The notes under the pieces: model-generated
What the model saw: the letters and a program-made list of their open reading frames with translations, nothing else
Told to the model about the DNA's origin: nothing
Databases searched by the model: none
Translations under genes and position numbers: made by a program
Shown here: piece by piece, positions 7,074 to 26,600 of the stretch
How positions within the stretch are numbered: the first letter of the stretch is position 1
How the letters are laid out: each line of letters starts with the position of its first letter
Assembly: GCF_017348835.2 (NCBI RefSeq)
Contig: NZ_CP071375.1
Strand: one strand, 5' to 3'
DNA: 64,000 nt
From: Escherichia coli
GTDB lineage: Bacteria; Pseudomonadota; Gammaproteobacteria; Enterobacterales; Enterobacteriaceae

Positions 7074-7100
7074 AAAAAGCTCGCCGAAGCGAGCTTTTTT
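7074..7100. terminator. bidirectional intrinsic terminator between ubiF and the tRNA operon
   Basis: Hairpin gctcgc-cgaa-gcgagc flanked by an A-run on one side and a T6 run on the other. Confidence 0.7.
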
Positions 7101-8139: not shown

Positions 8140-8177
8140 TCAATAACTGAAACAGCCCCGGATTTCACCGGGGCTGT
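8140..8177 (-). terminator. probable asnB terminator hairpin
   Basis: 10-bp stem acagccccgg / ccggggctgt 11 bp downstream of the asnB stop, followed on the transcript by a U-rich stretch. Confidence 0.55.
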
Positions 8178-8187
8178 TTCGCATTTC

Positions 8188-10198: not shown

Positions 10199-10248
10199 GT
10201 TTGGCGTTTGTCATCAGAGCCAACCACGTCCGCAGACGTGGTTGCTAT

Positions 10249-16565: not shown

Positions 16566-16615
16566 TCTGCTTTATGCCTGATGCGACGCTTGAGCGTCGC
16601 ATCCAACAATGACAA

Positions 16616-18610: not shown

Positions 18611-18630
18611 AGAAATATGCAAACAATCCA

Positions 18631-18657
18631 AAACGCCGCGTTCAGCGGCGTTTTTTC
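18631..18657 (+). terminator. intrinsic terminator 3' of glnS
   Basis: Hairpin cgccgcg-ttca-gcggcg followed by a T6 run. Confidence 0.7.
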
Positions 18658-20833: not shown

Positions 20834-20862
20834 AAAAAAGCCAACCCGCAGGTTGGCTTTTC
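20834..20862. terminator. bidirectional terminator between chiQ and fur
   Basis: Hairpin agccaacc-cgca-ggttggct flanked by an A-run and a T-run. Confidence 0.7.
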
Positions 20863-20876
20863 TCGTTCAGGCTGGC

Positions 20877-21323
20877 TTATTTGCCTTCGTGCGCATGCTC
20901 ATCTTCGCGGCAATCGCCTTCGGCACAGTGACCGTAAAGATAGAGACTGTGGTTAGTCAGGCGAATGCCATGTTTTGCGGCAATTTCACGCTGACGCGCT
21001 TCGATGGAGTCATCACTAAATTCGATTACCTTGCCGCAGTCGAGGCAGATCAGGTGATCGTGGTGATGTTGCTGTGTCAGTTCAAATACGGATTTACCGC
21101 CTTCAAAATTGTGGCGGGTGACGATACCAGCATCGTCAAACTGGTTCAGTACGCGATATACCGTAGCCAGACCAATTTCTTCACCCATATCGATCAGACG
21201 TTTGTATAAATCTTCCGCACTGACGTGATGGTTGTCCGGCTCCTGAAGAACTTCCAGGATTTTTAAACGAGGAAGCGTTACTTTCAGGCCAGCTTTCTTT
21301 AGGGCGGTATTGTTATCAGTCAT
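20877..21323 (-). CDS. fur: ferric uptake regulator
   Basis: 148-aa ORF with HHHDH and paired CxxC zinc motifs; recognised as Fur. Confidence 0.97.
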   Translation of the reverse strand: MTDNNTALKKAGLKVTLPRLKILEVLQEPDNHHVSAEDLYKRLIDMGEEIGLATVYRVLNQFDDAGIVTRHNFEGGKSVFELTQQHHHDHLICLDCGKVIEFSDDSIEARQREIAAKHGIRLTNHSLYLYGHCAEGDCREDEHAHEGK

Positions 21324-21402
21324 GCGGAATCTGTCCTGTTACTAAGCGGTTCACTTCATTAGAAGAAGTGACAGAATTTGCTCTTGAGATAATGCGTATC
21401 AT
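21316..21402 (-). CDS. uof: uof, upstream leader ORF translationally coupled to fur
   Basis: 28-codon ORF MIRIISRANSVTSSNEVNRLVTGQIPHD whose TGA overlaps fur codons 2-3 (ATGACTGA); matches the described uof leader peptide. Confidence 0.75.
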   Translation of the reverse strand: MIRIISRANSVTSSNEVNRLVTGQIPHD

Positions 21403-21611
21403 TATAGAATTGCCACGCCTAAATGAAAACCACAAGTCCCTGGCAAATATTGTTAATAAAAACGTGGCACAGCTTACATTTACAACAGCAAGGCCACTTG
21501 AACACCGGGACATTGTACAGGTACAACAGCAAAAGTTACAAATTTGTAGCAATTATTTTGATTGGCATTATCTATTAATACGGCGTAGACATGAGTCTAC
21601 GCCGCATCACA

Positions 21612-22142
21612 TCAGGCATTGAGAATTTCGTCGAGATGCAACTCTTCAGAAATCTGTTTAACCCATTTTTCTACACGTTCAGCGGTCAGTTCCGGCTGAC
21701 GGTCTTCGTCGATAGCCAGACCGACAAAGTGGTCGTCATCTGCCAGACCTTTTGATGCTTCGAAATGATAGCCCGCAGTTGGCCAGTGACCAACGATGGT
21801 TGCACCGCGCGGTTCAATGATGTCGCGGATGGTGCCCAATGCGTCGCAGAAATATTCGGCGTAATCTTCCTGGTCACCACAACCAAACAGCGCAACCAGT
21901 TTGCCATTGAAATCAATCTCTTCGAGAGTCGGGAAGAAGTCATCCCAGTCACACTGCGCTTCGCCGTAATACCAGGTTGGGATGCCCAGCAGCAGAATGT
22001 CATAAGCTTCCAGATCTTCTTTGCTGCTTTTTGCAATGTCATGGACATCGGCAACGTCTTTACCAAGCTGTTTTTGAATCATTTTTGCGATATTTTCGGT
22101 ATTACCGGTGTCGCTGCCGAAAAAGATGCCAGTGATAGCCAT
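21612..22142 (-). CDS. fldA: flavodoxin 1
   Basis: The ORF track gives 215 aa; the conserved flavodoxin N-terminus [16 protein letters not shown] starts at ATG 22142 (176 aa). Confidence 0.95.
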
Positions 22143-25919: not shown

Positions 25920-26600
25920 CAAATGCGCCTATAAGGCTCTCTTACCAGCCGCGCCCTAACAGGCGCACACGATCTGACATTTGCATCCAACTTCGTTACT
26001 TACGGCCCGTAAACGGGCTGCCCGGATAGGGAATCGATAACTGCTCTACCATTTTATCCTCTTCAAGCTGGTGCTTTATGTAATCCTGTATCTTCGCCGT
26101 GTTCTTACCCACTGTATCGACGTAGTACCCTCTGCACCAGAACTCCCTGTTCCTGTATTTGAATTTCAAATCACCAAACTGCTCGTAAAGCATCAGACTG
26201 CTTTTCCCTTCCAGATATCCCATAAAGCCGGATACGCTCATTTTGGGCGGGATCTCCACAAGCATATGGATATGATCTGCACAGCATTCAGCTTCCAGAA
26301 TCCGTACACTTTTCCACTCACACAGCTTTCTCAAAATACTGCCTATTGCTCTACGCTTCTCTCTGTAGAACACCTGTCTTCGATATTTTGGCGCAAAAAC
26401 TATGTGATATTTACAGTTCCATCGGGTGTGCGCTAAGCTCTTTTCGTTCCCCATTGGGACCCCCTTTTGATTTCTTGTTTGACACTTGCAGTTGCCAGAC
26501 CGCAAGGTGTTTTAACAAATCAAAAGGGGTTTTAATAACTGGCTCAAAGCTGAAAGCTTTCCGGAACCCCCAGCCTAGCTGGGGGTTTTCTGTGCACAAG
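25920..26600 (-). mobile_element. IS200 insertion sequence (IS200/IS605 family); ends approximate
   Basis: Contains a 152-aa HuH tyrosine transposase and the characteristic IS200 5' leader hairpins; boundaries estimated to about +/-30 bp from the flanking pgm and potE terminators. Confidence 0.8.
25996..26454 (-). CDS. tnpA: IS200 transposase TnpA (HuH Y1 transposase)
   Basis: 152 aa from ATG 26454 (MGNEKSLAHTRWNCKYHIVFAPKYRR...) with HuH motif HIHML and catalytic Tyr in RGYYVDTVG; near-identical to the Salmonella IS200 TnpA from memory. Confidence 0.9.
   Translation of the reverse strand: MGNEKSLAHTRWNCKYHIVFAPKYRRQVFYREKRRAIGSILRKLCEWKSVRILEAECCADHIHMLVEIPPKMSVSGFMGYLEGKSSLMLYEQFGDLKFKYRNREFWCRGYYVDTVGKNTAKIQDYIKHQLEEDKMVEQLSIPYPGSPFTGRK

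Follow-up and report, generated by a model that had tools for sequence, protein, structure and literature searches.

A conserved hairpin just after fldA may serve as a leaky, Rho-independent terminator ahead of uof-fur in Escherichia coli

The window analyzed here is the whole stretch of 64,000 nucleotides of Escherichia coli DNA (contig NZ_CP071375.1), whose coordinates become MG1655 coordinates on addition of 689,323. Its minus strand carries fldA, the essential, SoxS-induced flavodoxin gene, followed by uof and by fur, the gene of the master iron regulator (Table 1). A cotranscript of fldA and fur has reportedly been known since 1999, when Zheng et al. are said to have shown a polycistronic message. 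It was described again in 2014 as part of a ybfE-fldA-uof-fur unit with three promoters (Conway 2014, PMC4161252), an account that describes the operon by these promoters and not by a terminator. Activation of both fldA and fur by SoxS was restated in a 2025 review citing Zheng et al. 1999. The fldA-uof spacer is 288 nt long, and fur's own promoters lie ~70 nt downstream of the hairpin with which this analysis is concerned; the promoter of uof-fur is listed as TTGTAA-18-TACAAT (Shimada 2014).

Table 1. Features at the fldA-uof-fur junction, in window coordinates
Feature	Position	Strand	Remarks
fldA coding sequence	21612-22142	-	mRNA ends at the hairpin
fldA stop codon TGA	21612..21614	-	7 nt (21605-21611) upstream of the core stem
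Extended 15-bp helix	21576..21609	-	core plus 5 A-U/G-U pairs, UGAUG with UAUUA; includes the first 5 nt of the tail
Core hairpin	21581..21604	-	perfect 10-bp stem, 7 G-C pairs, 4-nt loop UCAU, in the fldA sense transcript; RNAalifold on 47 species gives the same 10 pairs
Tail UAUUAAUA	21573..21580	-	A/U only; 4 of the 8 nt are U, with no U-run longer than 2
RNA 3'-end cluster	21571..21576 (MG1655 710894-710899)	-	5-10 nt after the core stem; three published genome-wide datasets
Conserved DNA element ATAGATAATGCCAATCAAAATAATTGCTACAAATTTGTAAC	21535..21575	-	directly adjoins the hairpin and overlaps the -35 TTGTAA; probable OxyR operator
uof-fur promoter, -35 TTGTAA	21541-21536	-	promoter hexamer scan and published listing
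uof-fur promoter, -10 TACAAT	21512..21517	-	~65 nt downstream of the hairpin
uof	21316-21402	-	downstream of fldA
fur	20877-21323	-	downstream of uof

A preliminary description of this DNA had singled out the sequence cggcgtagac-atga-gtctacgccg as a strong hairpin 8 nt after the fldA stop. The sequence maps exactly to window 21581-21604, as described there, but the core stem begins 7 nt and not 8 nt from the stop codon. In the transcript it reads CGGCGUAGAC-UCAU-GUCUACGCCG, with pairing that starts 2 nt (extended helix) to 7 nt (core) downstream of the stop. A 101-nt context of the hairpin folds at -27.9 kcal/mol (z = -4.4), a stability that none of 200 shuffled sequences equaled, and the core hairpin alone contributes a predicted -18.2 kcal/mol. 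The stable, G+C-rich stem-loop that an intrinsic terminator forms in the nascent RNA is thus present at this site. Perfect hairpins, counted as stems of at least 10 bp with loops of 3-8 nt, occur at 8 distinct sites in the window and are ~16 times commoner than in shuffles; the same count gave 11 hits in the window against 0.5 ± 0.9 in 100 dinucleotide shuffles. With the hairpins of the window so far above the shuffled count, we rejected a chance palindrome as the explanation for the one after fldA. We also considered GUGUAGA, within fldA, as another partner for the 3' arm, but this alternative has only 7 bp and lies in translated sequence, and the local helix of 10-15 bp would be expected to outcompete it. 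No Rfam covariance model matched in overlap with 21570-21610, even at E = 10.

The site is nearly invariant within the species. A 401-nt query around it matched 5424 of 5426 complete E. coli genomes, nearly always once and with fldA, uof and fur as the annotated genes, and in 4531 E. coli genomes the 81-nt region shows an identity of 99% or more. The median of one place per genome among the 5424 also led us to reject a REP/BIME repeat. One natural variant, in E. coli GMF065, replaces GC of the 5' arm by AT at the equivalent of 21604-21605, converting a G-U pair to A-U and a C-G pair to U-G, and the helix is kept. For a wider comparison we took one genome per species, which yielded 80 Enterobacterales loci with FldA identities of 89-99%; fur lies downstream in all those that extend far enough. 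Together with the window these make up a set of 81 sequences, of which 77 contain a fold of -12 kcal/mol or lower in the first 60 nt after fldA. A z-score of -2 or below is reached by 71, and every first stem begins no more than 12 nt from the stop codon. The arms themselves vary by genus (AAUGAGGUGUGAU...AUCGCACCUCAUU in Kluyvera, GCCUGAUGUGGGA...UCUCACAUCAGGC in Pantoea and CGGAAACGC...GCGUUUCCG in Yersinia). A palindromic site for a sequence-specific protein, in which the arm sequence would be conserved between species, was rejected on this variation.

Covariation was assessed in a plain MAFFT alignment of 47 Enterobacteriaceae sequences on which the E. coli structure was imposed. Within it, 84% of the cells are paired, compared with 27-47% in controls with slid partners, and 13 of the 15 pairs show double-sided, compensatory changes; none of 500 shuffles equaled any of the observed measures. 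The outer pairs of the extended helix are partially conserved and covary at alignment columns 20-47. RNAalifold, applied to the 47 species, predicted the same stem independently. In the core, G-U or U-G combinations number 36 and A-C or C-A combinations 5, and from this large excess of G-U over A-C the folded strand is identified as the fldA sense RNA. The strand-specific covariation of the hairpin across Enterobacterales, as judged from these aligned sequences, is new here. The hairpin is real, conserved and functional, but it is ordinary.

The sequence that follows the stem, UAUUAAUAGAUAAUG, had been described beforehand as A/U-rich without a U-run, and this was borne out, with two consecutive U residues as the longest run. 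A simple terminator scan, whose rule asks for 5 or more U among the 8 nt that follow a stem, did not call the fldA hairpin. The tail lacks the U-tract of an intrinsic terminator, so we do not file the hairpin as a canonical one. A d'Aubenton-Carafa-type score was slightly negative (-7). With Sugimoto parameters the RNA:DNA hybrid over the tail comes to -4.8 kcal/mol, which places it in the weakest 1.2% of the window's 8-mers, and given so weak a hybrid the hairpin may still work like an intrinsic terminator despite having no U-tract. Only 14 of the 81 sequences carry 4 or more U in the first 8 nt beyond the folded helix. Real U-runs follow the equivalent hairpin in Atlantibacter, Franconibacter, the Enterobacter cloacae complex, Pantoea, Erwinia and some Yersinia. 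The tail of Citrobacter, CAUCAAUAG, is even poorer in U than that of E. coli and the hairpin is still kept, which points to some function independent of a U-tract.

Directly after the stem the consensus reads (U/C)AU(U/C)(A/G)AUAGAUAAAAGCAAUCAAAAUAAUUGCUACAAAUUU(G/U)UAAC and is highly conserved in Enterobacteriaceae. A 16-mer further on, GCTACAAATTTGTAAC (21550-21535), contains the palindrome ACAAATTTGT, overlaps the -35 hexamer of uof-fur and is conserved from Escherichia to Yersinia. When the 37 nt from ATAG (21575) were set by hand against ATAGnTnnnAnCTAT-N7-ATAGnTnnnAnCTAT, which we take to be the OxyR consensus, ~17 of the 22 specified positions matched. The conserved element beside the hairpin is thus probably an OxyR site. 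The OxyR site of E. coli fur has been stated to be 100% identical in Yersinia (PMC7867234). The tail forms the edge of this fur-promoter element and is therefore plausibly barred from becoming a U-run. Such a constraint, a new observation here, may explain why the putative terminator is U-poor and leaky. In seven loci of the Enterobacter cloacae complex, ~10-45 nt past the fldA stop, the hairpin is followed by CGTTTTCC and ATAG is replaced by CCAGG; U residues are gained there and the promoter-distal quarter of the conserved element is altered.

The preliminary description had made its proposal of a partial terminator depend on there being RNA 3' ends at the hairpin, and such ends are found in all three of the published genome-wide datasets that we compared. 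Term-seq places a strong 3' end of fldA at MG1655 710897 on the minus strand (window 21574), in an RNA that finishes ...GCCGUAUUAAU-3', 7 nt after the stem (Adams 2021, PMC7815308). This end, supported by 47,785 reads in LB at OD 0.4 and assigned to fldA as its primary one, has an intrinsic-terminator (Chen-model) score of 19.7 (PMC7815308). It is insensitive to the Rho inhibitor bicyclomycin: its Rho score is 0.92, it falls outside the significant regions of Rho termination, and the Rho-region table of the same study has no entry for fldA (PMC7815308). A TRS study scores termini by a signal defined as 1 minus local read-through. It reports a terminus spanning 710889-710901, significant in 3 of 3 libraries, with a signal of 0.72 and its dominant position at 710894, and a re-analyzed dataset places the dominant position at 710895 with a signal of 0.93; the fur and chiQ terminators both reach 0.99 (PMC10687069). 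The fldA terminus is annotated there as 'alternative primary in TU', meaning that the gene is not the last in its unit (PMC10687069). On these literature data the ends lie 7-10 nt after the core stem and are independent of Rho, as at an intrinsic terminator. In a SEnd-seq study, 9.4% of covering reads stop at 710898 in wild type as opposed to 2.4% in an RNase E mutant (PMC10667835). The same study gives a nibbling pair for RNase II, from 710895 to 710899 (PMC10667835). The 15-bp helix ends with base 710899, so that the trimming stops at the helix base, as expected of an exonuclease barrier.

The proposal of a partial terminator therefore stands in part. A 3'-end signal below that of the neighboring full terminators, together with published cotranscription, fits the word partial; termination and processing would each be consistent with the ends. 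We favor the reading, to which we give a probability a little under 60%, that the hairpin is a leaky, U-poor, Rho-independent terminator of fldA and also the protective 3' stem-loop of its mRNA. The reading builds on the hairpin, its sense-strand conservation, the 3' ends in vivo, their Rho-independence and cotranscription, all of which are supported. On the proposed mechanism, the hairpin would fold in the fldA sense RNA immediately upon its synthesis and would form the 3' end of the mRNA. RNA polymerase would then stand on the all-A/U stretch UAUUAAUA, where the RNA:DNA hybrid is predicted to be weak, and a sizeable fraction of complexes would free their RNA 7-10 nt past the stem without Rho. 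We infer in this way that the ends arise by termination and that a fraction of the polymerases is left to read through. Since the tail falls short of a true U-run, these remaining polymerases, from the ybfE and fldA promoters, would pass the fur promoters into uof-fur, giving rise to the known fldA-uof-fur cotranscript and coupling fur to the SoxS-activated fldA promoter. After release, RNase II would trim the tail to the base of the 15-bp helix, which would shield fldA mRNA from 3' exonucleases. In Escherichia the tail would be held from becoming a U-run by the abutting upstream element of the fur promoter, probably the OxyR site.

The rival that survives best makes the hairpin an exonuclease barrier only. 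Polymerases would read through almost completely, RNase E would cut downstream, and PNPase and RNase II would trim back to the helix, leaving a stable fldA segment. We consider this possible but rather unlikely. The fldA tail without a U-run speaks for it, as does conservation of the hairpin despite the very U-poor tail in Citrobacter, which gives it real weight. Many 3' ends arise by processing according to Adams et al. (PMC7815308), and in PMC10667835 RNase E dependence is recorded for the end at 710898, while the RNase II pair maps to the helix base. The RNase E-dependent class, however, also contains the genuine fur terminator end at 710157, at which 35% of reads stop in wild type against 2.4% in the mutant (PMC10667835), so the label is unspecific and does not exclude termination. 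The passages searched report neither a PNPase start nor a downstream RNase E 5' end for the site (PMC10667835). The Chen-model score of 19.7, the weak all-A/U hybrid and the real U-runs at the same place in related genera also speak against a barrier only.

A further reading, in which the hairpin is an adjustable gate that separates fur from the SoxS-driven promoter of fldA, we regard as improbable. With the hairpin beginning only 2-7 nt past the stop codon of fldA, its 5' arm could be covered by a terminating ribosome; occlusion of this kind could make read-through into uof-fur report fldA translation or transcription-translation coupling. A U-poor, structured 3' end could also recruit a 3'-end binding protein such as ProQ, which would control the stability of fldA mRNA against RNase II. 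If the gate existed, upkeep of the hairpin in genera nearly without U in the tail would reflect regulation or stability and not termination.

Rho-dependent termination downstream of fldA, followed by trimming to the hairpin, would agree with the general trimming of Rho-dependent transcripts back to stem-loops cited by Adams et al. (PMC7815308), but it is very unlikely in view of the Rho score of 0.92, the lack of a significant Rho region at the site after bicyclomycin and the absence of fldA from the Rho-region table (PMC7815308). That the palindrome acts in the DNA, as a cruciform or by binding a dimeric protein that regulates the fur promoter, is hardly credible even though a perfect DNA palindrome does adjoin the conserved promoter-upstream element, since the arms differ by genus while complementarity is kept (compensatory changes in 13 of 15 pairs), which argues against a sequence-specific protein site, since the strand-specific ratio of 36 G-U to 5 A-C points to RNA, and since RNA 3' ends map to the palindrome.

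The leaky terminator that we favor can be set beside several known systems. It resembles the canonical Rho-independent terminator between chiQ and fur in having a G+C-rich stem-loop just after the stop codon and 3' ends 7-10 nt past the stem that are insensitive to a Rho inhibitor; the two differ in that the chiQ/fur terminator has A4/T4 flanks and a signal of 0.99, whereas the fldA hairpin has a mixed A/U tail in which no more than two U are consecutive, together with a signal of 0.72-0.93, and in that ~9% of reads end at the peak position of the fldA hairpin as against 35% at the fur terminator. The leaky internal terminator of sdhCDAB-sucABCD (PMC4161252) likewise lies between cotranscribed genes, with an internal promoter just downstream, so that there are one or two transcription units. 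Intercistronic stem-loops that stabilize upstream RNA, as treated in PMC10667835, share with fldA a stable helix at a 3' end within a polycistronic unit and nibbling by RNase II of ~4 nt to the helix base; the stabilizing stem-loops there come with trimming over a long range from a distal cut by RNase E, whereas what fldA shares with them is the nibbling to the helix base. Suboptimal intrinsic terminators that are helped by NusA or NusG have interrupted U-tracts, and the fldA site shares with them a strong hairpin, an interrupted U-tract and a predicted partial efficiency.

Read-through from fldA into fur helps decide how superoxide stress feeds iron control, although with fur also served by promoters of its own the hairpin may not by itself set the amount of Fur. 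Published tables and papers already contain the cotranscript, the 3' end at the hairpin with its terminator score, and the independence of that end from Rho; with its components in print the finding itself counts as known. The hairpin is an ordinary, catalogued gene-end signal, and its description here is a tidy annotation point that holds no surprise. In the literature searched we found no text that discusses the fldA terminator, this hairpin individually or ProQ binding to fldA, and no in vitro termination data for the hairpin; fldA was absent from the supplements searched of the SMRT-Cappable-seq paper and of Dar 2018 (PLoS Genet).

Other hairpins and RNA ends in the window were observed alongside. 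Between the convergent genes chiQ (plus strand) and fur (minus strand) lies a perfect 11-bp hairpin, AAAAGCCAACC-CGCA-GGTTGGCTTTT (20836-20861), flanked by an A-run and a T-run, which looks like a bidirectional terminator; published ends lie at 710185-710187 on the plus strand and 710153-710157 on the minus strand, with a signal of 0.99 on both. Six other perfect hairpins of 10-13 bp lie at 7074-7099, 8149-8180, 10221-10244, 16580-16603, 18630-18654 and 26565-26587, and several of them have A/T-run flanks of the terminator type. Inside fldA, promoter-like hexamers TGGTCA-16-TATCAT occur on the minus strand at window 21765-21792. By the filtering rule that Adams et al. applied, a mapped transcription start should lie no more than 200 nt upstream of the fldA 3' end, and with a start so near a short RNA from the 3' region of fldA that ends at the hairpin is possible. 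A very abundant Term-seq 3' end (137,086 and 180,817 reads in two conditions) lies at window 21322 (MG1655 710645, minus strand), exactly where the stop of uof and the start of fur overlap, and is flagged by Adams et al. as 'uORF' only; an additional Term-seq 3' end lies inside fur at 710532.
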